Part shown: positions 13,669 through 58,569 of the stretch, one piece after another
Layout of the letters: every line of letters begins with the position of its first letter
Numbering within the stretch: position 1 is the first letter of the stretch
Source: a virus
Length of the DNA stretch: 64,000 nt
Strand: one strand, 5' to 3'
Virus genome (UHGV): UHGV-0385297
The notes under the pieces: model-generated
The model's database searches: none
What the model was told of the DNA's origin: nothing
Seen by the model: the letters and a program-made list of their open reading frames with translations, nothing else
Position numbers and translations under genes: made by a program

Positions 13669-14532
13669 CTAAGCTTTTCTATTTGTGGTATTACGTTTTT
13701 CGTTATATTTTTTATATCTAATTAAATCATTTTTTCTCTTACACTCACCACAATACATTTTCTTATTTCCTGTTTTTTCAATCAGTGCGCCACATTGTTT
13801 ACAGCGAGTGTACTTATTATTGTGTCCACGCTTAACTCCATAATATTCTTTCTGATAATTTCGAATATAATAGGAAAGAGAACGATTTATGTACTTAACA
13901 TAGAAATGATCTTCAGTAATAAAATCAAAATTATTTACAAGCTTTGTCTTATCTTCATACTCGTCAATCAATTTACAATTGTCAAAACACTTTCTAAGAA
14001 AACCCTCAATTATGATTTTGTACTCGTTCCAGGAAAGGGTCATTTTTTCTTTCTGAAATCTTTCTTTCGTGGTTAAAGCTTTATCCATAATGTCATCTAT
14101 GACAGAAGTAGCATTTTCTTCGGTCATATCTACACCAGAAGCCCATTTGTAATACAATTGTTTTGGCTTTTTGAGCAAATCCATATATTCCTTATTTAGA
14201 ATTACTTCTTTATCAAAATATTTCGTATAAATATTATTTATTTTTTGCCTTATAATTGAACACCAATTTTGATTTTTGGAAACAGATTTATAGTATTTAT
14301 ATTCAATCATGGACCATGCATCAAATACTTGTCCAACTGGTGTTCCCAGTAAATTCTTTGCTACCTTAAATCGAATAGCTTTCTTATATGTTCTTCTTTT
14401 ATTTCCACATGACCAGATGGCGGAGCAGAACGAAGAGAAAACTTCGTCCTTTTGCTCCTGAGTCTGTAGTTCTTTGTATTTTTCTATAATTTCATATAGA
14501 AATGTTTCGTTACAGTCGTAAATATGTATCAC
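13669..14532 (-). CDS. Hypothetical protein with a C-terminal zinc ribbon
   Basis: It carries CKQCG...CGEC at the C-terminus. Its start overlaps the end of the polymerase gene by 23 nt. Confidence 0.5.
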   Translation of the reverse strand: MIHIYDCNETFLYEIIEKYKELQTQEQKDEVFSSFCSAIWSCGNKRRTYKKAIRFKVAKNLLGTPVGQVFDAWSMIEYKYYKSVSKNQNWCSIIRQKINNIYTKYFDKEVILNKEYMDLLKKPKQLYYKWASGVDMTEENATSVIDDIMDKALTTKERFQKEKMTLSWNEYKIIIEGFLRKCFDNCKLIDEYEDKTKLVNNFDFITEDHFYVKYINRSLSYYIRNYQKEYYGVKRGHNNKYTRCKQCGALIEKTGNKKMYCGECKRKNDLIRYKKYNEKRNTTNRKA

Positions 14533-17140
14533 CTACTTCAAATTCATAATATTTTCCAAGATATTCATAAGTATTATATGATTTGTATGGAACTTCTCGA
14601 ATAGAAATATTTCGCTTTGGATTAGTATTATTTTTTAAATTCTCAATAATATATTCTCCATAAGCAGCCCAAGCTAAAGATTTACTGATTGAAAGAGAAG
14701 AGTATGAAGTTGCAATAACATAATTGGCAATAACATCTTCGTCAAGTTTAAGTTTTTCAGAAATATTATCTTTATATTTCTTTACAACTTCGTCCATACT
14801 AAAATCATTATTTTCATCTTTATGTAAATTTAGATGCTGCTTTATTTCATCTGCATACATATTGATGAATTTCTTACACTCTTTAATGACTCCTTTATCT
14901 TTTAGATTAAGGTCATTGTTGACGATTAAGCATCTTGTATCTATAAGATCATTAACACTGTTATCCCATTTAATATTCTTTTTCTCCCATGTCTCGATGT
15001 ATTCACATAATTCATTCATAGGAGAAGGAGACCTATAGGCATTCAATTTTTCTTTCTCATCTGGTTCAACTCCCTTATTTTTACTAAGAATATTCTGATA
15101 CGTTTTCATTTTTTGAGGATAATTATGAAGCAAGAAATACGGTAGCTGTTTTAAATGTTTTCTCAGACCACTATTCATATGCCACCTAAAACCGGTTTTA
15201 AGAAAATCAATTTCTTTGCCCTGGAAAATTCTTAGAAGAGAAGAGGAATCAGAGTATAACTTCTGAATATCTGGATTTGTTGTATACCGATTCTCAATGC
15301 TTGTTGCTACATTGGTTATTTCACCAATACGGTTATCTCTTGTCATTACTTCATACTCAATTAAATTTTCTTTCGTATATGGTTTTGACTTTGCTGTAAC
15401 CTTATCTTCGACATCAAGAATAATATGTTTGTCAATTTTTGAACCAATAACAATTGGTTCGTTGCACAAAAAGAAAATATCCCCGTCAAAATCTGCCCCT
15501 CCCTGCTGCGGGGCAGATATATCATACATATTAAACATCACGACATCTTGATCTTTAAAATATCCGAACCATTTATTTAAAATGTCATTTCGCACAATTT
15601 GAATCTTGTTTACTTCAGATGGGTCCACAAGAGGAGATCTAAAAGAAGCACAATATCCTGGTTCAAAATTTGCAGTATATAATTCTCTTTCTTTTAAGCA
15701 ACCGACTGGATTTTCTCCGACTGCATATTGAAGATAACCAATCATATCACCAACACCTGTATGATAAAAACCAGAACAATAAATTTTTCCTACTTTTGCC
15801 TCATCAATGGATTTTTTTAATTTTCTATAAATAAACTGCTTTACTGCAGGATCCTTCAACATTACATCATTGATCAATGCTGCTTCGAGATATTTACTTT
15901 CTGGCTCATATCCATCTGTATCATTTATACCCATGAATTTGTAGGTATAAAATTTATCTCCTTTAATAATCTTCTCGAATAGGTTAGTAGTGTATTTTGC
16001 CAATTTGATGATTTTTCCATCATTGTCAGGATTTAAAACGTCATATTCTTTTCTATTTTTATCTACAAAACTATTGATGTATTTCTCATTCCATAGATCA
16101 AGACATTGTAAATACTGAAAATTCATTCTGGTGTACTTGTTTAAGTGCTTTACATGATGGCTATACTTACTAATACCTAATTTAAACTGATATTTCTGTA
16201 ATGTCTTCATATATTCAATCCATGCATCATTTCCATACTTTGATTTAAAAATCTTATGACCTTTAAACATTGAGATGTTCCAGATACAATCAATATCATC
16301 GATTTTATGCTCATATCCATAGATATCAGTAATAGTAGTGTATCCCCATTCCTTTAGAATTTGTTTAAATGGAACATATACGGAATATCCTTTTATAAAT
16401 GGCAGACGAACCTGGTTTCCAATAACGTCATAGCCTAAATCCAACTGTGTACTAACAGTTTTCATAAATTCTCTTTCATGACAACCACATCCATCAAAAG
16501 GAGATAATCCTATATCTCTTAAACCTTCTTCAATTTCTCTAACTTTATATTTTTTGGACTCACCAGTTTCTTTATCTACGAAAGTTTTTTCTTTTTCTAT
16601 GACATATTTGATAAGCTGATCATTTAAAGTTTTTTCATATTCACCGATGATAACAATATTTGGAATATAATCTTTAATGAGAGTACAGGAGCTAAACGGG
16701 AGACATCTTTGCGCTTCATATTTAGAAATAACGCACTCATCAATTTCAATATCCATTTGAGTGATCATGTATAATTCATCGAAAATTTCGTCACATACAA
16801 AAGCAGTAATACCGTCTTTTCCCTGAGATGCAGATTTTCCAAAACGAGAATAATGAGTACCGTTATACGTAAATCCATTATTAAGAATATCTCGCAGTGC
16901 GGTTTCTTGTTTTGGATTCTTTTTTGCGACTATAAGCATAAGCTCTTTAATATGTGTTGAAAATCTACCTCTTAGCCTTTGAATCTGATCAAACAATAAG
17001 GAATCACCTTGTTTAATAAGATATTCATTATCTATTTCTTCATTTTTACTTAGACTCAAATCATATTCTGAATCAATGAGTTTTTTGATTGGTAACTTAA
17101 CCAAAGTGTATTGAATTGATTTTATAATAAACACCACCAT
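14510..17140 (-). CDS. YonO-like single-subunit RNA polymerase candidate
   Basis: This 876-aa protein contains QQGGADFDGDIFF. ADFDGD is the invariant Mg-binding loop of multisubunit RNAP beta-prime and of the SPbeta-prophage YonO polymerase. Its size and its HU-like neighbour also fit YonO. Confidence 0.55.
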   Translation of the reverse strand: MVVFIIKSIQYTLVKLPIKKLIDSEYDLSLSKNEEIDNEYLIKQGDSLLFDQIQRLRGRFSTHIKELMLIVAKKNPKQETALRDILNNGFTYNGTHYSRFGKSASQGKDGITAFVCDEIFDELYMITQMDIEIDECVISKYEAQRCLPFSSCTLIKDYIPNIVIIGEYEKTLNDQLIKYVIEKEKTFVDKETGESKKYKVREIEEGLRDIGLSPFDGCGCHEREFMKTVSTQLDLGYDVIGNQVRLPFIKGYSVYVPFKQILKEWGYTTITDIYGYEHKIDDIDCIWNISMFKGHKIFKSKYGNDAWIEYMKTLQKYQFKLGISKYSHHVKHLNKYTRMNFQYLQCLDLWNEKYINSFVDKNRKEYDVLNPDNDGKIIKLAKYTTNLFEKIIKGDKFYTYKFMGINDTDGYEPESKYLEAALINDVMLKDPAVKQFIYRKLKKSIDEAKVGKIYCSGFYHTGVGDMIGYLQYAVGENPVGCLKERELYTANFEPGYCASFRSPLVDPSEVNKIQIVRNDILNKWFGYFKDQDVVMFNMYDISAPQQGGADFDGDIFFLCNEPIVIGSKIDKHIILDVEDKVTAKSKPYTKENLIEYEVMTRDNRIGEITNVATSIENRYTTNPDIQKLYSDSSSLLRIFQGKEIDFLKTGFRWHMNSGLRKHLKQLPYFLLHNYPQKMKTYQNILSKNKGVEPDEKEKLNAYRSPSPMNELCEYIETWEKKNIKWDNSVNDLIDTRCLIVNNDLNLKDKGVIKECKKFINMYADEIKQHLNLHKDENNDFSMDEVVKKYKDNISEKLKLDEDVIANYVIATSYSSLSISKSLAWAAYGEYIIENLKNNTNPKRNISIREVPYKSYNTYEYLGKYYEFEVGDTYLRL

Positions 17141-20965: not shown

Positions 20966-21820
20966 CTATGATGCTTTATCAAAAATGGTTGTATATTTAG
21001 TTTGGGTTGTTTCCAGCTGCATAAGATTATACTGTCGCAGAAGTGTATCTACTACGTTTTCGAACAATACTCTAATGTGAGGTGAATGTTCAATGGCATC
21101 TAAGGTATAACATGTTTTCAGTTTATTTTCATAGCAATAATCTTCTTTTAGCTGATTTAAATCTATATCAGGATAGAGATTCTGCATTTCTCTGTAAAGG
21201 TTCTTATATAATTCTGTATAAGAAATATCAAAATATTCTGCTAAGAGCTGATACTTTGGGAACATCTTTGTGGACCAATAGGAATATTTACGCTGAGAGA
21301 TTGATTTCTGTGTAGTCTTAAGATTATTGATCTCATTTTGCATAACAGTAATAGTAGTAGTGATGTCTGTCATAGCTTTTGTTAATTCGGATACTGTTTT
21401 AGTTAATGAAAATACTGCATCTGTGACTTGAGTAAAATCATTCATTGAGACCAGATCATTGTGTCGGTATTTTTCTACAATATCCCATACCCAATCCATG
21501 AAAAGGTTTGCTTTTGGCTGTCTGGACCAACGGCAGATTTCCATAACACCACGTTCTGTATAATAAACACGCTCTTGTTCTTCGCTCTTAGTCAGGTTAG
21601 TACCAATTTGGTACTGACCTAATTTCATTCTTATACATAATGGATCTAATCTATCCTTATGCTTAAGATGAATTCTTCTAATACACATTGATGGATCAGT
21701 ATATTCTAACGCCTGACCAATCTGTTCTCTTGTAAGAAGGATATCATCATTCATATTACGATAGAAGCTGCAGGATAAATTATTAAAGGTTTCTGTGGTT
21801 ACTAATTTTAATGTACTCAT
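20966..21820 (-). CDS. Bro-N/ORF6N-like antirepressor-family protein
   Basis: The N-terminus FNNLSCSFYRNMNDDILLTREQIGQALEY...ERGVMEICRWSRQPKANLFMDWVWDIV fits the family. Confidence 0.55.
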   Translation of the reverse strand: MSTLKLVTTETFNNLSCSFYRNMNDDILLTREQIGQALEYTDPSMCIRRIHLKHKDRLDPLCIRMKLGQYQIGTNLTKSEEQERVYYTERGVMEICRWSRQPKANLFMDWVWDIVEKYRHNDLVSMNDFTQVTDAVFSLTKTVSELTKAMTDITTTITVMQNEINNLKTTQKSISQRKYSYWSTKMFPKYQLLAEYFDISYTELYKNLYREMQNLYPDIDLNQLKEDYCYENKLKTCYTLDAIEHSPHIRVLFENVVDTLLRQYNLMQLETTQTKYTTIFDKAS

Positions 21821-22849: not shown

Positions 22850-23340
22850 TGGTAGAGTGGATTTGTAGTATAGATATAATGGTAGATACGACAAGTTAAT
22901 AATCGGATACGTTAGAACGATCCCTGGGTAATGGTATGTTATGTACTGTTACTTGGGGATTTTTTGTTGTGTAATTGTGTTGGGATGGATCGGAATGGAT
23001 GAAGGGTATGTTTTGATGTGTTATGAGTTGAAAACATGGAATCGTAAATTCCCTTTAATATAATGAAGAAACACGTTTTAAGATTAGAATTTTAATTTTT
23101 GGGATGTTGCATTTTTTGAAATTTTGGTGCGATTTTTATTGAGATTGCGGGATTTTTACGATAAGGGGGCCGATAACAGTTTTTGAGGTGGTGACGAGGG
23201 GATTTTGGGCGTAGTTGTGGGGAAATGGAGTGTTGGGATTTGGAATGTAGATGGGAGAGGAGCGTGATACACCTGGATGAGTTGGAAGTGGTGGGTGATT
23301 TGGAAGAGATGTTCAAATTTTAATTTGAAAGTTTGATTTT
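22850..23340. other. GT-rich, nearly cytosine-free tract with no ORF
   Basis: About 490 bp of G/T runs (GGGATTTTT three times, GTGTTGGGAT twice, GGGG runs). The opposite strand is C/A-rich and G-poor. Confidence 0.7.
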
Positions 23341-23467
23341 GAACTTAGTGTGTAGATGAAACAGCTACCGGCTCTGGTGAAAACACTTTAGCACTTTAAA
23401 GTTTTAACCAGCCCCCATAAACAATAATAGTAATAATTACTGTTATTTTACACGGTTTTTTCCTATT

Positions 23468-23481
23468 TTACCGTAGCCGAA
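23468..23481. promoter_or_regulatory. LexA (Cheo/SOS) box CGAACATATGTTCT
   Basis: It matches the Bacillus-type consensus CGAACATATGTTCG at 13 of 14 positions. Confidence 0.6.
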
Positions 23482-23506
23482 CATATGTTCTGTTATTTGA
23501 TCCGAC

Positions 23507-23520
23507 TTCTGGCAATCGAA
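23507..23520. promoter_or_regulatory. LexA (Cheo/SOS) box CGAACATATGTTTG
   Basis: A 13 of 14 match to the consensus, 39 bp from the first box. Confidence 0.55.
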
Positions 23521-23662
23521 CATATGTTTGCTTATTGACTGTGAGCTATGATAGTTTTTTAAACTTTTACATGTAGTATTGATAACTACATGTAATGATA
23601 TTTAATACTATAAGAGGTAGTTCGACAGTGAAAAAATAATATCGAAAAAATTAAAATTGTTA

Positions 23663-23691
23663 TTGACAATCACACTATCATGTGATATATT
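23663..23691 (+). promoter_or_regulatory. Consensus promoter with a TCACA-N6-TGTGA operator in its spacer
   Basis: TTGACA, a 17-nt spacer (atcacactatcatgtga) and TATATT. Confidence 0.7.
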
Positions 23692-23763
23692 ATAGTCAAG
23701 TTCATAAAGAACGACAGCGGGAACGCTGTTATAGCACTTTTAAAAGTTTTTAGAAAAAAGTGC

Positions 23764-23792
23764 TTGACAATCACATGAACGTGTGATATAGT
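23764..23792 (+). promoter_or_regulatory. Second tandem promoter with the same operator
   Basis: TTGACA, a 17-nt spacer (atcacatgaacgtgtga) and TATAGT. Confidence 0.7.
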
Positions 23793-23799
23793 CATTAAT

Positions 23800-24400
23800 G
23801 TAAGAACAAAGTAGTTCAGTTCTTACAGCCGCTAAAATGCCCATGTGGGGCGGTGGCAAGTTCCTTGTCAATTTAATAGGAATAAAGCCCATGAATTGAA
23901 AAATTCACAGGCTTTAAAAGTTGGTTTGATAAACCAAACCGTAGCAAGTTCAGTTTATCATTCTATCTTTCATTTGTCAAGTCTGGCAAGTGTTTTCCTA
24001 TTAATCGGCTACCAGTGACGGCACTGGTGGACTTTGCGCAACGGTCAAGATAACAATACTGGATGCCCGCAAGAGTGTCTAGCGTTTACGCAAGTAAGCG
24101 CATTGTGAAAATACCCGTTGTGGGTACATTGAAAAATAAACAACTTATACAGTGTTTTATAAAGCGTTTGGCATTTTCAACAACGGGTGAATTCCCCGTT
24201 AAAATGTCCGTGTAGCGTATAAAAGCGTTACACTAGCAAGCTGGACTTAGCACGACTGCGGTTGTGAACGTGTTCGCATTTGCGCACTTAGCTTGCTACT
24301 GGTGAAAATCCCACACTAGGATTCTGAAATCTTGCCTAGTAGTGACCCGTAAGAAGGTAGGAAGTCGGTTTAAGGCTGAGAAGCATTTTGGACAATAAAT
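23800..24400 (+). ncRNA. Candidate large structured RNA or leader (GC-rich island, no ORF)
   Basis: GC is about 45-48% against roughly one-third in the flanks. Nested inverted repeats include AAAGCC..TGAATT..AATTCA..GGCTTT, GGTTTG..CAAACC, CCCGTTGT..ACAACGGG and TAGCAAGCT..AGCTTGCTA. It lies downstream of two strong promoters. Confidence 0.3.
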
Positions 24401-24538
24401 AAAATGATTGTAAGACGTGTCGTTATACATAGGTCAAGGGGCGGACTAGCACTACCAGTCTGTCCTTTGCTCGTGTGCATAACACGGCAACTACAAAAAA
24501 TAATTTTAATTCCGCAATGCGGAGAAAGAGGTATTTAT

Positions 24539-25339
24539 ATGAAGATTAACTTTTTAGCAAACTTTGAGAAAGTAACTATCAACGCTATTGTGCCAGCGGT
24601 ACAGTATGAGGCTAACCTGATGCTTCAGACTATGAATGATGAAGCAATCGCTAAACAGGATAAAATCATCTCTAATCAAAAAGGTGGTTACTCTGAGGAC
24701 GAAATTAAGGTAGCAAAGGACAAAAAGAGTAAACTGGAAGCCGCTAACGCTGAACTTGTAATTGCTAATGCTGAACTTGAGCCACGCTACAAGTCTACCC
24801 TGGAAGTAGTTACCAGTGCTAACAATGGTCATGTATCTAATGACCTTGTAGCGTTCCGTAACATTTTACGGCTTGTGGCATGCTCTGATAATAGCAAGTT
24901 TTTCCGCTATGCCATTATCACAGATGTCGATTTTTCAACGTTTTATGACCTGTTTGAAAAGTGCCATTCTATCGATGGTGACTTTGATGACAATGGTATG
25001 CGTGTATACCTTAATCAGGCTTGGAACACCCATAAAGACATCAAAGCTGAGATTGAAAAAATCCTTAAAAAAATGTTTTCACTCGTTGCTGACAGTGATT
25101 TAACCAAAAAAGTTACTATCAGATTTAACAAAACAGACCTTGGCATCTTACATGAGTGTTACGTCACAGGTCTGACCGTTTCTGCTAAAAAGGATAAAAA
25201 CGGTGAGGTAGTAGTGGGTGATTATAAATTTAGAACTGTAATCACTCGTAAGAAAGACAAGGATGGCAATGATAAGTTTGAAGGTGACAAGTTCAAAGAA
25301 CTCATTGCTAAAATTGCGTTTGGAAAACTGTATGCATAG
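24539..25339 (+). CDS. Hypothetical protein (first gene of the plus-strand block)
   Basis: An ATG with a GAGAAAGAGG RBS. The longer track ORF would start inside the structured region. Confidence 0.6.
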   Translation: MKINFLANFEKVTINAIVPAVQYEANLMLQTMNDEAIAKQDKIISNQKGGYSEDEIKVAKDKKSKLEAANAELVIANAELEPRYKSTLEVVTSANNGHVSNDLVAFRNILRLVACSDNSKFFRYAIITDVDFSTFYDLFEKCHSIDGDFDDNGMRVYLNQAWNTHKDIKAEIEKILKKMFSLVADSDLTKKVTIRFNKTDLGILHECYVTGLTVSAKKDKNGEVVVGDYKFRTVITRKKDKDGNDKFEGDKFKELIAKIAFGKLYA

Positions 25340-25428
25340 TTTTCACAGGACACAGCGGTTTAAGGGCGGTTCAACTCCGCCCGTGTCTAGTTATAGAAAA
25401 TATAAACAATTTACGGAGGTAAAATAAC

Positions 25429-25683
25429 ATGAATATGGTTCAGGTACAGAAAATGTTAATAAACGTATACCGTGATTACATCGGTATGGGCAGAAGGCAG
25501 AGCGAAATGGATAAAAGCGTTCTGTCTTTTTTAATGCAGGAATATTCCCAGACTTGCATGGACTGGGAAGAAATCCAGTGGCTCTGGATCCAGTATCTTA
25601 AAAAGGGTGTATTGGATCTTCCAGAGGCAATGAAAAGAGCCAAATTAAGAATAGAACAGGAGACAGCGGTATGTGTAAGGTAA
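25429..25683 (+). CDS. Hypothetical protein
   Basis: It has a GGAGGT RBS. Confidence 0.55.
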   Translation: MNMVQVQKMLINVYRDYIGMGRRQSEMDKSVLSFLMQEYSQTCMDWEEIQWLWIQYLKKGVLDLPEAMKRAKLRIEQETAVCVR

Positions 25684-26069
25684 AAGTGTATCACACAATT
25701 TCCAGGGAAGTATTTCACGGAATGCAATTTGCACCATTTTCTATCCGTGCGGTATTTGAGAACGGAACAGAGCTTGTATGCTCTGAATTTTCCAGAACTG
25801 AAAGCGGTATAACAATGTACCTGTACAACGGAAGTGGTGCATGGAAACGTATCTGCAATAACGGCATTTATGCGGATTTAATGGAAAAGTATTACCGCCG
25901 TTGGTTCAAAGAAAAACATGATAGTCTGAACTATGCAGCTATGATGAAACATGACCGTAAACGCAAAACAGGTTCAGCTGGACAGAGGCTCACACCATTC
26001 TGCGGACAGGTCACAGACTATGAATGTGCGAAAATTCCATTGCATGACTTTCGCAGAGTATGGAACTAA
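25671..26069 (+). CDS. Hypothetical protein
   Basis: A GGAGA RBS; it overlaps the previous gene by 13 nt. Confidence 0.55.
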   Translation: MCKVKVYHTISREVFHGMQFAPFSIRAVFENGTELVCSEFSRTESGITMYLYNGSGAWKRICNNGIYADLMEKYYRRWFKEKHDSLNYAAMMKHDRKRKTGSAGQRLTPFCGQVTDYECAKIPLHDFRRVWN

Positions 26070-26086
26070 CAAAGGGAGGTAGCGAA

Positions 26087-26242
26087 ATGTTAGAAATAAA
26101 TAATGATATTAAGATTATTACAGACGCAATTAACACTTTTGGAAGTTGTACTATGCACATTCTTCCAAAAGACAAAGAAGAGAAATTAACAGAACTGGGA
26201 TATGAAATATCCCGTAAAAGTTGGGGAATTATTATAAGATAA
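26087..26242 (+). CDS. Small hypothetical protein
   Basis: RBS GGGAGGTAGCGAAATG. Confidence 0.45.
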   Translation: MLEINNDIKIITDAINTFGSCTMHILPKDKEEKLTELGYEISRKSWGIIIR

Positions 26243-26256
26243 TTGGAGGTAGCGAA

Positions 26257-26340
26257 ATGATGAGTTTTGTTTGGGTAATGTGTGTATTTTTCGGTGGTAT
26301 GGCATGTGGTTATTTACTTACTGATAATAAGGAGGATTAA
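26257..26340 (+). CDS. 27-aa hydrophobic peptide
   Basis: MMSFVWVMCVFFGGMACGYLL, preceded by the same GGAGGTAGCGAAATG context as the gene upstream. Confidence 0.35.
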   Translation: MMSFVWVMCVFFGGMACGYLLTDNKED

Positions 26341-26344
26341 GGAT

Positions 26345-26710
26345 ATGAAAAGAGAAATGACTAGAGGAGAAATGAGACTGTATTTAACTGGCAATGCCAG
26401 TGTATGGGTAGGTAAGACATTTGCACATGGTAAAAACATGCGCATGGTATCCAGGTTCACAGAAGAGGCAGATTATACCTGTGAGTATGATGGTGAGGAT
26501 CTGGGTGATGGATTCTGCACACATGACGTAGACGAGGCACTTGACTGGTTATTCGGTGTACGGAAATCAAACTACCAGAAGCATTATTTCTACTTTGCGA
26601 CTGGGGAAAATGTAAAATCAATCTGCTTTTACACATCAGAGGACGCATGGGAATTTGTAAAAGAATACGCAGATAGCGGTTATGACTGCGTAGTAGAAAG
26701 ATATATATAA
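26345..26710 (+). CDS. Hypothetical protein
   Basis: RBS AAGGAGGATTAAGGATATG. Confidence 0.55.
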   Translation: MKREMTRGEMRLYLTGNASVWVGKTFAHGKNMRMVSRFTEEADYTCEYDGEDLGDGFCTHDVDEALDWLFGVRKSNYQKHYFYFATGENVKSICFYTSEDAWEFVKEYADSGYDCVVERYI

Positions 26711-26866
26711 AGGCAGACCATGCTCTGCCAGCTCTGAGTTATGGAAACCGCTACGAGGTTCAGAGCAGACAACGGAATTTATTTCGGCTAATATCCATAG
26801 GTAACTTGTAAACCAGTATAAAAACCGTTATACTTGACTTATAAAAGTGAAAGGCGGTGGAAAGGA

Positions 26867-27043
26867 ATGGAAGGCATGAGCGAAAGCGAACTGATTGCTG
26901 TATTAATCGATAAGTACACAGATTTACAGCGAATCAAAAAAGCAAACGGCGGAGTAGAAAACGCAGAACTTGATTATCAGATTAAAGTCACCACTGCGAA
27001 ATTAGCTTCTATGAAGGTAAATGTAGAAGATTTAACTTTATAA
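26867..27043 (+). CDS. Hypothetical protein
   Basis: A 58-aa ORF with a GGTGGAAAGGA RBS. Confidence 0.4.
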   Translation: MEGMSESELIAVLIDKYTDLQRIKKANGGVENAELDYQIKVTTAKLASMKVNVEDLTL

Positions 27044-27120
27044 TCCGTCCGGGATTCAGGGGCAAGGGATATAAAAATTCCTTGCTCTTTTTATGCCTAA
27101 AATACAGGAGGTAAAGTGAT

Positions 27121-27651
27121 ATGTGTAAATATTTCAGCGGATGCAAAACAAAACAGCAGCTTAAAGTACGGTTTAAAACTCTGATTAAAGAGAATCACCC
27201 AGACAATGGAGGGGATCTGGAAACAATGCAGACCATAAACGCAGAATACGACAGATTAGTTAAAATTCTTCCAGATATTCCAGGTTCAGAAACAGAAATG
27301 CGTGATGAAAAAGAAAAATCTGCACGGAAACCAGAACCAGAAAAAACAGAAACCGATTTTACAGACTTATCAGACGCAGTAAAACAGGCTATAGCCAGAG
27401 CAACGCAGATACCAGGTATTGAAGTGGAAGTGTGTGGTTCTTGGGTATGGGTATCCGGAAATACTTACGCAGTTAAGAATACATTGAAAGAAATTGGCTT
27501 CCGGTTCTCAGGCAAAAAGAAAATGTGGTATTTCCATGAGGAAATTGAAGGACGGAAATACTTCAAACGTAAAAGAGAAATGGATATGGGATCTATCCGA
27601 TCTAAGTATGGTACGGAAACTATGTATCATAGGGAAGTATGCTTAGGGTAG
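27121..27651 (+). CDS. J-domain (DnaJ-like) protein
   Basis: The HPD tripeptide appears in LIKENHPDNGGD inside a J-domain-like N-terminus. RBS AGGAGGT. Confidence 0.65.
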   Translation: MCKYFSGCKTKQQLKVRFKTLIKENHPDNGGDLETMQTINAEYDRLVKILPDIPGSETEMRDEKEKSARKPEPEKTETDFTDLSDAVKQAIARATQIPGIEVEVCGSWVWVSGNTYAVKNTLKEIGFRFSGKKKMWYFHEEIEGRKYFKRKREMDMGSIRSKYGTETMYHREVCLG

Positions 27652-27703
27652 TGCCTAGTATGACGGCAGAAGAGAAATTTTCTGTCGTTGATAGTGGGTA
27701 TTA

Positions 27704-27732
27704 TTGAAAATCACATGTATATGTGATAGAAT
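27704..27732 (+). promoter_or_regulatory. Third promoter carrying the TCACA-N6-TGTGA operator
   Basis: TTGAAA, a 17-nt spacer (atcacatgtatatgtga) and TAGAAT, directly upstream of the Cro-like gene. Confidence 0.65.
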
Positions 27733-27763
27733 GGAGGTAATTATATAGGACGGAGGAAAGGAA

Positions 27764-28045
27764 ATGATAGTATATAGAAAACTAAACAATTTGCTAAAAG
27801 AAAAAGGAATGACATGGAAAGATTTATGTCAAGCAGGAATTAGTGTTAATATGCCAACTAAATTTTCACTAAATAGAGTAGTGAAAACAGATGTTATAGA
27901 TAAAATTTGTGCATATTTACATGTTCAACCCGGTGACATAATGGAATGGGTAGAAGATGAGGATGAATTAAAGCAACTTGAAATAGAATCGCAAATCGCA
28001 GCACTCAAAAAGCAACTCGCAGATCTTAAAGGAGACAAACCATAA
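27764..28045 (+). CDS. XRE/Cro-type HTH regulator
   Basis: The HTH LKEKGMTWKDLCQAGISVNMPTKFSLNRVVK is present. The gene's own promoter carries the operator shared with the 23.7 kb promoters. Confidence 0.65.
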   Translation: MIVYRKLNNLLKEKGMTWKDLCQAGISVNMPTKFSLNRVVKTDVIDKICAYLHVQPGDIMEWVEDEDELKQLEIESQIAALKKQLADLKGDKP

Positions 28046-28254
28046 TGACCATAACCGGTGCATACCAAAAAGACCAGAACTTCACAACCATCTATACAGA
28101 AGATACCCTTTATACCATTGCCCGCAATACAGGTGAATGGAGTTACAGAAAAATGGGTGATTGGTTAGCTTGCGGAGGCAAATTAACACCTGAACTATTC
28201 CAGGAATGGAAAGCAGAATGTACTGAAACAGGTACGTTTAACCTTAAGGAGTAA
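28045..28254 (+). CDS. Hypothetical protein
   Basis: An ATGA start overlap with the previous gene. Confidence 0.5.
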   Translation: MTITGAYQKDQNFTTIYTEDTLYTIARNTGEWSYRKMGDWLACGGKLTPELFQEWKAECTETGTFNLKE

Positions 28255-28270
28255 AGTTAATACGCAATGT

Positions 28271-28312
28271 AATAGCATCTACCAGAGAAAAATCTGATAG
28301 GTGCTATTTCTT
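28271..28312 (+). terminator. Hairpin terminator (repeated element)
   Basis: AATAGCATCTA..TAGGTGCTATT followed by TCTTT. The same stem recurs at 29097. Confidence 0.45.
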
Positions 28313-28339: not shown

Positions 28340-28368
28340 CTTGACAATACAACAAATTTGATGTATTT
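28340..28368 (+). promoter_or_regulatory. Promoter for higBA
   Basis: TTGACA, a 17-nt spacer, and TGtATTTT. Confidence 0.4.
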
Positions 28369-28402
28369 TAAAGGTAGAATACAAAGGAGGAAGTTTTAAA
28401 GT

Positions 28403-28738
28403 ATGACACGATCTTTTATTGAGACACCAACGTTTACATCAAATTGGAATGAATTAGGATTGACTGACGAGGATTTAAGAACTCTTCAAAATGATCTGTT
28501 AGAAAATCCTAAAATGGGTGATGCTATTCCTGGAACTGGCGGAATAAGAAAAATTCGTATTCCAATGGAGAATAAAGGAAAGGGAAAACGTGGTGGCGCA
28601 AGAGTAATATATATTGATGTAGAAATTAAAGAAATAATTTATTTTATCAATGTATATTCTAAAAACGAAAAAGATAATTTAACAGAAGATGAAAAAAAGG
28701 CTTTTAAAGCCTTGGTGAAAATTTTAAAGGAGAGATAA
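28403..28738 (+). CDS. higB: HigB/RelE-family toxin
   Basis: GIRKIRI...GKRGGARVIYIDV...IYFINVYSKNEKDNL follows the RelE/HigB pattern; the toxin gene comes first. Confidence 0.65.
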   Translation: MTRSFIETPTFTSNWNELGLTDEDLRTLQNDLLENPKMGDAIPGTGGIRKIRIPMENKGKGKRGGARVIYIDVEIKEIIYFINVYSKNEKDNLTEDEKKAFKALVKILKER

Positions 28739-28740
28739 AA

Positions 28741-29058
28741 ATGAGTAAATTCTTTGACGAAACAATGCAAGGTTTACTTGAAGCAATTGCAATTGACAAA
28801 GGACAAATTCCAATGAAAAAGGTAGAGGGCTTATCAGCCCCTACCTTACGGGCAGAAAATATAGAAAGTAATTTGATCGATAATATCATTGCATTACGGA
28901 AAGAGAATAATATATCTCAAACGGAATTAGCTGATTTGACCGGAAGTAATCAGCAAACAATTTCACGTTTTGAAAAGAAAGCGCATAGTCCATCATTAGT
29001 TTTATTTGTTAAAATTATTGATGCACTTGGATATGAAATGCAGATTGTGAAAAAATAA
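28741..29058 (+). CDS. higA: HigA-like XRE antitoxin
   Basis: The HTH LRKENNISQTELADLTGSNQQTISRFE sits directly downstream of the toxin. Confidence 0.65.
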   Translation: MSKFFDETMQGLLEAIAIDKGQIPMKKVEGLSAPTLRAENIESNLIDNIIALRKENNISQTELADLTGSNQQTISRFEKKAHSPSLVLFVKIIDALGYEMQIVKK

Positions 29059-30256: not shown

Positions 30257-31384
30257 ATGTGTAGAATTGATGGAAAGAAACTTACTGTATTAAGAAAATC
30301 TCAGAAAATGAGCCAGGAGGATTTAGCAAAGAAAAGTGGTTTAAGTAGGAGTGCCATAGGTAATTATGAAACTGGAAGATTTAATGCAAGTGATGAGGCA
30401 TTGGATATGATTGCACAGGCTTTAGGTGTTGAATCAAAAGAACTTGATAAAGATTTTATCCAGCTTGGAAAAGCTGTTATAGAAGGTAAAAATGATTCTC
30501 ACCATATCCATAACACAGATAAGCGGTATTTAACTCCACAGGAAACTCAGGAAATCCTTGATAAATTACGGTCTTATAGTGACAATGTGTCACTTGAAGA
30601 AGCGAAACGAGCATTGACAAAAGCAAACCAGTCTACAGTAGGCAATAAGGTATATGCGGTTGTAGCGATTAAAGGATTAAATATTCCTGTATGGCAGAGA
30701 AATACAGACAAAGAGAAATGCTTAGAAATCAGCCAGAAATATGATGAAAACAAATATGATCCAATTAAAGTATATGCTTTCAATGAAAAGTTATACGTAG
30801 CTGATGGAGCGCATAGATTAATTGCTTACATCATGCGAGGAGAAGAATATATTCTGGTTGAACTTATGGATATTGAAACGGAAATTGAAGCAGCTCATAC
30901 GTTCTTATTACAGAGTTTAGGCAGACGGAGAATGTCTCAGAATGATATGTGGAGAGCTGCTATTAAAGCCGGATTAGTCCAGTACGAAACATTACGGAAA
31001 ATTGCTATTAAAAATAAAATCCAGATTAAGGCAGATCTTAAGACGATTAAGAACCCTGTCGGAACTATCAATGCAGTATCAGGGAAAATGTTACGGATTG
31101 CGCATAGTGACCCTGATGTATTAGAGAAAGTGTTCGCTCTTATTAAAACACTTGGTTGGAATGCATCTGATACAAGTCCATACAAAACTTATATCCTGTG
31201 TACTTTGAAAAATATGTACGCAAATTTCAGCGAAAGAGAGAATGAATTAGAGAAGTTGATGATGGAAAACTGTATGGGTGCAACCTATTTTGAAGAGAAA
31301 GTTGCAACTGTAAATACACAGACAAGACTGTATGACGTTTTAATGGAAGATATTTCCAAAAATGCAGAAAAGAAAACTGCATAA
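30257..31384 (+). CDS. XRE-HTH fused to a ParB/sulfiredoxin-like domain
   Basis: An N-terminal HTH (LSRSAIGNYETG) and a central region KLYVADGAHRLIAYIMRGEEYILV that resembles the ParB N-terminal GxxRxxA box. The gene stands alone between a terminator and a hairpin. Confidence 0.6.
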   Translation: MCRIDGKKLTVLRKSQKMSQEDLAKKSGLSRSAIGNYETGRFNASDEALDMIAQALGVESKELDKDFIQLGKAVIEGKNDSHHIHNTDKRYLTPQETQEILDKLRSYSDNVSLEEAKRALTKANQSTVGNKVYAVVAIKGLNIPVWQRNTDKEKCLEISQKYDENKYDPIKVYAFNEKLYVADGAHRLIAYIMRGEEYILVELMDIETEIEAAHTFLLQSLGRRRMSQNDMWRAAIKAGLVQYETLRKIAIKNKIQIKADLKTIKNPVGTINAVSGKMLRIAHSDPDVLEKVFALIKTLGWNASDTSPYKTYILCTLKNMYANFSERENELEKLMMENCMGATYFEEKVATVNTQTRLYDVLMEDISKNAEKKTA

Positions 31385-56182: not shown

Positions 56183-56194
56183 AGGAGAATGATT

Positions 56195-57196
56195 ATGGAA
56201 GAGAAAAGTAGATATGCAACAAAGAAAAAAGGTAAAACAGAAGTTCAGCCATTATGGAATATGGAAGATATTAAAGCGGTTATAGAATGGTTTGAGAAAA
56301 AAGAAGATTGGGATGGATATTTTATCACCATGTTAGAGCTTCTTCTTGGTAGACGTATTGGTGATACTATCTCTATGAAGTGGTCTGATCTGTATTATGA
56401 AAACGGAAAGAGAAAAGAAGCAATTAACACTATTGTAGAGCAGAAGACAGGTAAAGTCACTGAACTGCCAGTAAGTCATATGACATATGAAGCAATGGAT
56501 ATTTATTTGGACCATACCGGCATTAATCCAATGCAGCATTATGATGAGTTTATTTTTAAATATGAAGCGAAAACTGCATGGGTTCAGCGTTATGATAATC
56601 CTGTGTATGATAATACAGACATAGAAGAATGGTGCAGATTCTTAGGAAAGGATTTTACGGAAGATCGTAAACAGAAAATTTTAAAGGATTTTGAAAAGCA
56701 AAAGGAGTATAAAACATTAGGTGGTTATTTGTATTATGAAGTAGAATGGAATGACATTGTAAAGTGGCAGTCTGATGATTATAGGAAGAAACTAAAACAG
56801 GCTGCGAAAGCTATTGGTATCACAACTCCAGTCAGTACGCATAGCCTTCGGAAGTCGCTAGGATACTGGGTGTATAAAATGCATATGTTCGATCCTAACT
56901 GTTTGCTGACATTACAGAAGCTCTTTAATCATGCAGATCTTCAGACAACTATAATTTATATTGGTTTAGTGGAGGAACAGAAGAGAAGATATTTGGAAGA
57001 TCATGGAGAGTTCATTAAGAACGTCCTGGCTGGCAAGGGAGATGAAATCATCAAAAACATGCCGGTCATTTCATTAAAATCAAACGACTTTGGAAATGTA
57101 ATTATGAATGTTATCAAGGGAATGCAGGAAGGCAAAGAAGCAGTTGAGGTTTACCAGATTGCTATTAACATGGCAAATGAGAAGCGAATTGCGTAA
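56195..57196 (+). CDS. Tyrosine recombinase (second copy)
   Basis: R in LLGRRIGDTIS, then HSLRKSLG, then LQKLFNHADLQTTIIYI with the Tyr. RBS AAGGAG. Confidence 0.7.
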   Translation: MEEKSRYATKKKGKTEVQPLWNMEDIKAVIEWFEKKEDWDGYFITMLELLLGRRIGDTISMKWSDLYYENGKRKEAINTIVEQKTGKVTELPVSHMTYEAMDIYLDHTGINPMQHYDEFIFKYEAKTAWVQRYDNPVYDNTDIEEWCRFLGKDFTEDRKQKILKDFEKQKEYKTLGGYLYYEVEWNDIVKWQSDDYRKKLKQAAKAIGITTPVSTHSLRKSLGYWVYKMHMFDPNCLLTLQKLFNHADLQTTIIYIGLVEEQKRRYLEDHGEFIKNVLAGKGDEIIKNMPVISLKSNDFGNVIMNVIKGMQEGKEAVEVYQIAINMANEKRIA

Positions 57197-58517: not shown

Positions 58518-58531
58518 CGAACAAATGTTCG
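58518..58531. promoter_or_regulatory. LexA (Cheo) box CGAACAAATGTTCG
   Basis: A 13 of 14 match to CGAACATATGTTCG. Confidence 0.6.
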
Positions 58532-58540
58532 ATAAAGTAG

Positions 58541-58569
58541 TTGACAGAACAAATGTTCGGCTATATAAT
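58541..58569 (+). promoter_or_regulatory. SOS-controlled promoter with a LexA box (AGAACAAATGTTCG) in its spacer
   Basis: TTGACA, 17 nt, TATAAT; the second box sits at 58546-58559. Confidence 0.55.

Follow-up and report, generated by a model that had tools for sequence, protein, structure and literature searches.

We analyzed a 64-kb window (the whole stretch of 64,000 nucleotides under study) of the virus genome UHGV-0385297 and identified an 18-bp dyad, ATCACA-N6-TGTGAT, that is probably the operator of a 93-amino-acid (aa) helix-turn-helix (HTH) protein of the HTH_26 family encoded by the same phage (27764-28045). Two copies of the dyad (O1 and O2) lie in the strong tandem promoters P1 and P2, and the third (O3) lies in a weaker promoter, P3, ahead of the HTH_26 gene itself. 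An autoregulatory circuit of this kind had been proposed in a preliminary description of this DNA, and each step of it that sequence can address held, namely the sites, their position in the promoters, the HTH gene, the recurrence of the arrangement in relatives and the mirrored half-site changes. The recurring three-promoter layout and the symmetric changes are the traces expected if a dimeric repressor controls its own gene and a small regulon. We infer the binding, dimerization, repression and biological role of the HTH_26 protein from sequence.

The motif TCACA-N6-TGTGA (TCACANNNNNNTGTGA) has exactly three matches in the window (23670-23685, 23771-23786 and 27711-27726), as first described, and none of 100 dinucleotide-preserving shuffles reached three (shuffle mean 0.10). 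The sites had been placed correctly except that the preceding A was counted in; the true dyad is 18 bp long. It is present in three exact copies, with no further copy at <1 mismatch. At two mismatches 35 sites were found against 38 expected, which is chance level, so the set in the 64 kb is limited to these three. The regulon is thus small and local, with 101 bp between the first two copies and about 3.9 kb to the third. The central N6 differs at each copy (CTATCA, TGAACG and TGTATA). The order of the half-sites is TCACA...TGTGA, the same on the other strand. A CRP/FNR site (TGTGA-N6-TCACA) was rejected because the half-site order is inverted in O1-O3, and the three sites do not match the Firmicutes consensus of the LexA/SOS box (GAAC-N4-GTTC).

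Each copy had been reported to lie within a near-consensus promoter, and we found that it fills the whole 17-bp spacer between the -35 and -10 elements of a sigma-70/sigma-A-type promoter (Table 1). The operator covers -29 to -12, abutting the -35 hexamer and taking in the TG of the extended -10 as well as the first -10 base. Read from the sequence, the right half-site TGTGA and the -10 together form TRTGn-TAnnnT, the Gram-positive extended -10. The half-site centers are 11 bp apart, or one helical turn, a spacing that suits an HTH dimer on one face of the DNA. In a consensus scan, P1 and P2 were the two top-scoring promoter-like sites in 19-31 kb. Their flanks are similar, consistent with a duplication, while P3 has nothing in common with them outside the promoter and dyad. 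The third promoter does stand ahead of the XRE/Cro-type gene; its -10 ends 32 bp before the ATG at 27764, with GGAGG between the two. The hairpin just upstream of P3 probably insulates it from upstream transcription.

Table 1. Coordinates and properties of the features of the proposed circuit
Feature	Coordinates	Strand	Description
Promoter P1	23663-23691	+	TTGACA (23663-23668)-17-TATATT (23686-23691); 11/12, with TG before the -10
Operator O1	23669-23686	.	ATCACActatcaTGTGAT; exact dyad
Promoter P2	23764-23792	+	TTGACA (23764-23769)-17-TATAGT (23787-23792); 11/12, with TG; 101 bp downstream of P1
Operator O2	23770-23787	.	ATCACAtgaacgTGTGAT; exact dyad
Long structured RNA from P1/P2	23799-24417	+	no convincing open reading frame; 23799-24403 folds at z -7.7
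Hairpin cassette	24418-24490	+	GTTATACATAG, GC-rich hairpin (~24438-24465), T-rich tract and GTGTGCATAACAC; fold z -4.3
Hairpin with GATAGTGGGTATTA	27655-27703	+	just upstream of P3; fold z -7.3; second copy of the cassette (hairpin and ATAGTGTGCAT)
Promoter P3	27704-27732	+	weaker -35, TTGAAA (27704-27709)-17-TAGAAT (27727-27732); 10/12, with TG
Operator O3	27710-27727	.	ATCACAtgtataTGTGAT; exact dyad
HTH_26 gene, 93 aa	27764-28045	+	proposed repressor; Pfam, AlphaFold model and Foldseek

The 93-aa protein matches Pfam HTH_26 (PF13443), a "Cro/C1-type HTH" family of the XRE superfamily, over residues 6-65 (E 9e-14, 51.9 bits against a cut-off of 22), and the same domain was found in all 99 close homologues. 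An AlphaFold model built with 39 homologues had a mean predicted local distance difference test score of 81.5. It contains a five-helix XRE domain at residues 1-62 with the HTH in helices 2-3 (helices 5-13, 18-24, 30-35, 42-52 and 56-59), followed by a long C-terminal helix (66-90) through which the protein would probably dimerize. Foldseek matched the model to VanUg, the N-terminal domain of SaPI2 Stl, CylR2, DdrO, restriction-modification C-proteins and SinR, with a probability of 1.00 for VanUg, SaPI2 Stl, CylR2, DdrO and SinR. The nearest structures, among them repressors such as SaPI2 Stl and CylR2, have 18-34% identity over 61-67 aligned columns, with VanUg at 34% and the SaPI2 Stl N-terminal domain at 32%.

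In the circuit we propose, an HTH_26 dimer would place one recognition helix on each 5-6-bp half-site. Since the operator abuts the -35 and includes both the extended -10 TG and the first -10 base, a dimer bound at -29 to -12 would be expected to exclude the host sigma-A RNA polymerase. One arm of the circuit would be negative autoregulation at P3, with its weaker -35 and its position behind the insulating hairpin. The other arm would repress P1 and P2, the strong tandem promoters that would start rightward early transcription, first of a structured RNA of about 650 nucleotides (nt) and then of a mosaic block of accessory genes.

Megablast of 23400-28300 identified no DNA-level relatives among deposited phages and plasmids, and it was protein-level and pattern searches that were productive. 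We scanned IMG/VR for promoter and dyad together (TTGAMAATCACA-N6-TGTGATA) and obtained 115 stretches, mostly on contigs of 100-200 kb. The typical relative has a tandem pair like P1/P2 (sometimes three copies) spaced 92-201 bp apart, and the copies on any one IMG/VR contig are all within a few kb of each other. By tblastn, a homologue of the HTH_26 protein with 46-64% identity was found 1.5-4 kb downstream of tandem pairs. A profile search of IMG/VR gave 431 HTH_26 relatives, 80 of which were kept, and the pooled set contained 69 distinct versions of the homologue plus 120 nt upstream.

As with O3 in the P3 spacer, the dyad overlaps the core promoter of the regulator's own gene in 57 of these 69 versions, where xxAC[AT]-N6-[AT]GTxx lies inside the spacer of a TTGnnn...TAnnnT promoter no more than 120 nt from the start codon. 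The arms are TCACA/TGTGA in 43, ACACT/AGTGG in 5, TCACA/TGTGG in 4, TTACA/TGTGA in 4 and CCACA/TGTGG in 1. The rest comprise two near misses, five in which the dyad has moved onto the -10, and five in which we recognized no dyad. The context TGTGATAGAATGGAGGTG around P3 is kept in relatives, as is a hairpin followed by TTTTATAGTGTGCATTA at the same place upstream of P3. The weak -35 of the regulator's own promoter is also found in relatives (TTGAAA, TTGCTA, TTGTGA and others), and their N6 is free (AAGTTC, AATTAA and others). Close relatives with a 99% identical protein retain O1-O3, although other genes now stand between P2 and P3.

Many relatives (for example the loci we numbered L008, L038 and L045) have a four-codon mini-open reading frame (ATG GAG GTA AAA TAA) right after the P3 -10, whose codons are the ribosome-binding site of the HTH_26 gene. 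The window lacks it. Where present, this arrangement hints at translational coupling.

The operators and the predicted recognition helix (residues ~27-38 of the HTH_26 protein) fall into four classes. In class A, which includes the window and most relatives, the helix S[VQTI]N[MT]P[TAQ][KR]FS is found with TCACA/TGTGA. Class B (L005) has the helix SKNMPYKFS; here the regulator's own promoter carries CCACA/TGTGG, and the tandem promoters both carry CAACA/TGTGG. In class C (L001-4 and L006-7) the helix is SPT[LVI][VI]AKFQ, and the dyads are CTACA/TGTAG in the tandem spacers and CTATG/TGTAG over the -10 of the regulator's own promoter. Class D, at six loci, combines the helix IAANTPQKFS with xCAC[TC]-N6-[AG]GTGx, such as CACTTTATAAAGTG, at all three promoters. 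A scan for more class C relatives gave two new loci only, and L322 had no recognizable dyad promoter in the DNA examined.

The change in the left arm is mirrored on the right arm in every class, and unlinked promoters of one genome shift together. The geometry is constant across the classes (5+6+5, from the second base of the 17-bp spacer). Classes C and D have no TRTG match and yet keep the dyad, which is therefore not kept for promoter strength. Operator and recognition helix thus co-vary, with four operator classes and four helix types, in few independent lineages and with one mixed case (L171). We regard this co-variation as the strongest evidence for the predicted cognate pairing. The symmetric half-site changes, the joint change of the promoters and the difference in helix by class together point to a dimeric binder encoded by the phage, most likely the HTH_26 protein.

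Several observations weigh against this assignment. Five or six of the homologues are without a recognizable upstream dyad. There are four classes only, of which one is populous, and the genomes are related, leaving few independent events. Helix substitutions occur inside class A without a change in operator, and the L171-type genomes are mixed, with TCACT/AGTGA at the tandem promoters versus TCACA/TGTGA at the regulator's own promoter. The right half-site overlaps the TRTG extended -10, so conservation within class A could in part reflect promoter function. Because immunity modules are transferred in blocks, a different linked regulator might also co-vary with the operator, and a 375-aa XRE-domain protein (30257-31384) is encoded 2.2 kb downstream, although in many relatives sharing this operator nothing but its C-terminal part is retained.

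The dyad could instead be bound by another phage regulator of the same module, either this 375-aa protein or an integrase-fold repressor of the SroF/MrpR type (56189-57196 or 1283-2257), with the HTH_26 gene merely a target. We consider this unlikely. These other DNA-binding candidates, the XRE protein and the recombinase-like open reading frames (ORFs), do exist in the window, and block co-variation of immunity modules does not single out the HTH_26 protein. The window also encodes a YonO-like polymerase, as does SPbeta, in which an integrase-fold repressor binds a repeated promoter element (PMC10516654). SroF, however, binds as a monomer to an asymmetric box of 24-26 bp (bioRxiv 10.1101/2025.11.27.690993), whereas the window site is an 18-bp dyad that changes symmetrically. 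A PDB sequence search detected no similarity between the recombinase-like ORFs and MrpR/SroF chains, and an SPbeta-type repressor was rejected as the binder on both operator geometry and this lack of similarity. As for the XRE protein, many relatives with TCACA/TGTGA match it over C-terminal residues 124-364 only. The dyad stands directly upstream of the HTH_26 gene in the 57 versions described above, a classic signature of autoregulation.

A HigA-like antitoxin was also rejected as the binder. The window encodes a RelE-like protein (28403-28738) and a HigA/HipB-like HTH protein (28741-29058) behind their own TTGACA-17-TATTTT promoter (region 28341-29058), the spacer of which holds a different dyad, ATACAAC-N6-GATGTAT. 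This pair was found in just a few relatives.

That a host regulator of the DUF1836/MerR-like type binds the dyad seems to us improbable. The phage promoters would in that case copy a host operator, and early transcription would follow host physiology. MerR-family proteins bind promoter spacers, and in a scan of one host genome per species the identical 25-nt promoter-plus-dyad, with N6 = TGACC[AG], was found upstream of a gene for a ~185-aa DUF1836/MerR_1 protein in 17 Clostridia species (genome loci L203, L232, L235, L241, L248, L266, L271, L275, L298, L301, L303, L308, L311 and L317). The same 25-nt pattern precedes a flotillin-like gene in 5 species, and O2 (ATCACATGAACGTGTGAT) is one base away from the host DUF1836 site. 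This candidate was strong after the genome scan and was weakened by an unbiased metagenome sample of 71 distinct DUF1836 promoters (loci L324-L403). In that sample the host operator is TCAyrTG-AC-CAyrTGA, with the center TGACCA conserved and positions 4-5 free, and TCACA/TGTGA occurs in just 7 of the 71. The phage sites are the opposite, with TCACA/TGTGA conserved and N6 free, and their classes follow the helix of the phage HTH_26 protein; the likeness between host and phage sites is thus only partial. No DUF1836 homologue was found in the window or the viral loci, nor did we find an encoded MerR-type HTH together with an operator fitting the DUF1836 consensus TCAnnTGACCAnnTGA. The matches at ribosomal-protein and rpoB promoters have a variable N6 and were picked by the search pattern itself.

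The host sites are of interest in their own right. In 66 of the 71 distinct upstream regions the dyad TCAyrTG-AC-CAyrTGA fills the 17-bp spacer of the DUF1836/MerR_1 promoter, and it is common to the flotillin-like gene. Together these sites look like an uncharacterized autoregulated host regulon; a literature search for DUF1836 binding sites found none.

It is very improbable that the dyad is no operator at all and is a promoter-strength feature, a TRTG extended -10 with a favored spacer spread by duplication of one promoter: although TGTGA followed by TAnnnT fits the Gram-positive TRTGn extended -10, the flanking similarity of P1 and P2 fits duplication, and the 25-nt pattern is found at housekeeping promoters (rplJ, rpoB, rpsO and rpmG) of some Clostridia, this reading is excluded by the mirroring of changes in both arms. 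These changes are common to unlinked promoters of one genome. Against this reading, too, classes C and D have a perfect dyad and no TRTG, P3 is like P1 and P2 in promoter and dyad only, the half-sites are held while N6 and flanks vary, and the left half-site is not known to have a role in sigma-A recognition.

Regulation of P1-P3 by the HTH_26 protein is the reading that we compared with known systems, and the sequence supports a mode of action predicted to be like that of Cro, Aca/AcrIIA1 or P22 Arc, in which an operator in the core promoter serves autorepression. In the Aca/AcrIIA1 N-terminal domain systems, an inverted repeat lies inside the core of a strong early promoter that is repressed after a burst, and AcrIIA1 is listed as HTH_26 (PMC9410906). 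The window agrees with that description in having an inverted repeat in strong, near-consensus early core promoters and a gene for a small HTH protein, the proposed repressor, that closes a variable block of small early accessory genes on its downstream side. It differs in having no identified anti-CRISPR gene (no anti-defence library was screened), in the HTH_26 gene having its own insulated promoter besides the upstream tandem promoters, and in the first product of the regulated promoters being a long structured RNA. A PDB sequence search with the 93-aa protein returned three chains only, from SaPI2 Stl and VanUg, and no AcrIIA1 chain, which argues against close homology to AcrIIA1 and says nothing on family membership.

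The label "Cro-like" given earlier to the 93-aa protein is correct for fold and family and not for a lambda-type switch. The likeness to lambda Cro/CI includes a small HTH protein of the Cro/C1 family, dyad operators over early promoters and, here as proposed, negative autoregulation and heteroimmune classes through co-variation of operator and recognition helix. There is no divergent CI partner, however; the neighbor on the other strand is Bro-N/Ant-like, and no HTH repressor gene was found there. Instead of three adjacent graded operators between two promoters, there is one dyad per promoter, and the HTH_26 gene is ~4 kb downstream of the main promoters rather than their first gene. At Pant of phage P22, as with some other repressors, the operator of Arc lies between the -35 and -10; Arc has a ribbon-helix-helix fold and binds in tetrameric form. 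The two arrangements are alike in having the operator in the spacer, with repressor and RNA polymerase competing (here as predicted) for the same face of the promoter. The window protein differs in being an XRE-type HTH protein, and its proposed operator takes up exactly the 17 bp of the spacer and also serves as the extended -10.

The XRE five-helix DNA-binding domain is shared with SaPI2 Stl, VanUg and CylR2, which have other C-terminal parts and unrelated operators. The PDB entry of SaPI2 Stl calls it a dimeric master regulator, and CylR2 controls the expression of cytolysin. To our knowledge, none of the three has an operator of the ATCACA-N6-TGTGAT type. With SPbeta, the window has in common a large Firmicutes phage, a YonO-type polymerase, a repeated early-promoter element bound (here as proposed) by a phage repressor, and an SOS link via LexA boxes elsewhere in the genome. 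The SPbeta system of SroF/MrpR (YopR) and SPBRE uses a monomer with an integrase fold and about ten dispersed asymmetric boxes of 24-26 bp (PMC10516654; bioRxiv 10.1101/2025.11.27.690993). The window, by contrast, has an 18-bp dyad at three local sites and a proposed XRE-fold binder.

The HTH_26 protein could be a maintenance repressor of a temperate phage or an early shut-off protein of the Cro/Aca type. We lean slightly toward maintenance and immunity because of the integrase, the integrated relatives, the SOS boxes and the insulated P3. A role like that of Aca or Cro is favored by the HTH_26 gene being co-directional with the mosaic early block and at its end.

P1 and P2 had been described as driving both a long structured leader and the first early operon. 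The first part stands. The operon, in contrast, lies behind a conserved hairpin cassette (24418-24490), so the leader may be a discrete RNA. The first 600-670 nt from P1/P2 contain no convincing ORF. One ORF had been listed from 24404, with an implausible N-terminus; the conserved start is the ATG at 24539, which is probably the real start of the first ORF. No Rfam family was found for the leader or the cassette at gathering or permissive thresholds. In 10 relatives (among them L001, L050, L092, L103, L123, L152, L163, L171 and L179) the counterpart of the leader spans 510-980 nt, with fold z values of -2.7 to -9.4; for 9 of the 10, the sense (transcribed) strand has the greater stability. Conservation of the leader DNA is confined to the last ~120 nt, containing the 3' cassette, and the rest diverges fast.

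In the 24418-24490 cassette, compensatory changes in the stem were found across 32 distinct versions, and the flanks GTTATACAT and GTGCATAAC can pair around the hairpin. The cassette occurs twice in the window (24418-24490 and 27655-27703) as a strong hairpin followed by (T)ATAGTG[TG]G[CT]AT, and the copy ahead of P3 is present in relatives too. By eye, we identified no convincing sigma-A promoter after the 24418-24490 cassette. The cassette might act in termination or attenuation, mark a processing site, or signal to the YonO-like polymerase. The leader may be a discrete non-coding RNA or an attenuator, and the region 23799-24470 may represent a new large phage non-coding RNA. The structured RNA is a more unusual feature than the autorepression.

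SOS-like boxes were found at 23478, 23517, 58518 and 58546. A perfect promoter, TTGACA-17-TATAAT (58540-58568), has the LexA box GAACAAATGTTC in its spacer and a second box, CGAACAAATGTTCG, just upstream of its -35 (region 58518-58568); the ~300 nt downstream contain no long ORF. This is probably an "operator in spacer" design for the host LexA that gives the phage an SOS input. The boxes at 23478-23491 and 23517-23530 (CGAACATATGTTC and CGAACATATGTTT) lie 145-185 bp upstream of P1, and we looked for a promoter that they control and identified none. In 26 of 68 distinct relatives, arrays of 2-4 SOS-like boxes precede the first tandem promoter by no more than 350 bp.

Between P2 and P3 (24539-27651), gene sets have been swapped among relatives (L318-L321), including genes for Fic, Uma2, HNH, nucleotidyltransferase and DUF3846 proteins. 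Such mosaicism would be expected of an early island of accessory or anti-defence genes. Within this block of the window, the 176-aa ORF at 27121-27651 has the HPD tripeptide as in J-domains and no Pfam match. A match to the Rfam family HDV-F-prausnitzii, a hepatitis delta virus-like ribozyme, at 26731-26800 (+) lies between two small ORFs of the P2-P3 early region and away from tRNA genes (score 44.1 against a gathering cut-off of 44, local E 6e-7).

The window has a G+C content of 33% and six tRNA genes, and its genes point leftward as far as ~20 kb and rightward beyond ~22 kb. It belongs to a large, uncultured and probably temperate phage of Clostridia. An 876-aa protein encoded at 14510-17140 (-) is homologous to YonO, the SPbeta single-subunit RNA polymerase. 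Its best matches are in Thomasclavelia phage TR-TP1 (30% identity, 3e-77) and Enterocloster phage PMBT24, and it has 23% identity to SPbeta YonO itself; by this sequence, the window is placed in a distant, uncultured branch of the YonO-encoding phages. Other products include two Bro-N/Ant-like proteins, a sliding-clamp-like protein, a methyltransferase and several HNH endonucleases. A XerC/D-like integrase gene (1283-2257, -) adjoins tRNA-Ser (705-789) at the left end of the window, and a second, divergent tyrosine-recombinase-like ORF is present at 56189-57196. A 378-kb contig from a Lachnospiraceae genome bin contains one relative, whose tandem sites are in L204 and whose P3 and HTH_26 gene are in L297. 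This relative suggests integration, with Lachnospiraceae as a likely host group, and together with the integrase beside tRNA-Ser it suggests a temperate lifestyle with integration at a tRNA gene.

On the other strand upstream of the operators are the Bro-N/Ant-like ORF 20966-21820 and, in G/T-rich DNA, a 74-aa ORF (23092-23316) for which there was no NCBIfam match. Upstream of the early promoters is a strongly G+T-rich stretch of ~400 bp (22960-23330) in which short GGG/TTT words recur; the GC skew is +0.35 over 22-24 kb, and a similar stretch occurs at the same place in a class C relative (L001, 3560-4060). Possible identities for the window stretch are an origin, a packaging site and a genome end.

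Taken further, the HTH_26 protein and its dyad might form the lysis-lysogeny immunity switch of a large uncultured family of phages of 100-200 kb with YonO-type polymerases, infecting Lachnospiraceae and other Clostridia. Heteroimmune classes would then have arisen by mirrored operator changes and helix changes, the main product of P1/P2 would be, instead of a protein operon, a highly structured and fast-diverging non-coding RNA of 0.5-1 kb ending at the conserved hairpin cassette (GTTATACATAG, hairpin, GTGTGCATAAC) that also precedes P3, and SOS input would come via separate LexA-box promoters that likewise have the operator in the spacer (58540-58568). We offer this wider picture tentatively, as a doubtful extension.

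Autorepression by a small HTH protein at a promoter dyad is textbook phage biology, whereas this phage group is itself without characterized regulation. The nearest cultured phages, with YonO-like polymerases of 23-30% identity, infect Thomasclavelia and Enterocloster. The parts most worth following are the orthogonal operator and helix classes and the structured RNA under their control. If confirmed, the HTH_26 protein and its operator would form a promoter-repressor pair that is compact and portable and exists naturally in at least four orthogonal specificities, possibly useful as genetic parts for Clostridia, and the classes would be a clean natural data set on how XRE-type helices read DNA. 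Confirmation would also show which transcripts these phages make and switch off first, namely the long structured RNA and the mosaic accessory block in which anti-defence genes are expected, and would provide the first regulatory handle on widespread large gut phages that have no cultured close relative.

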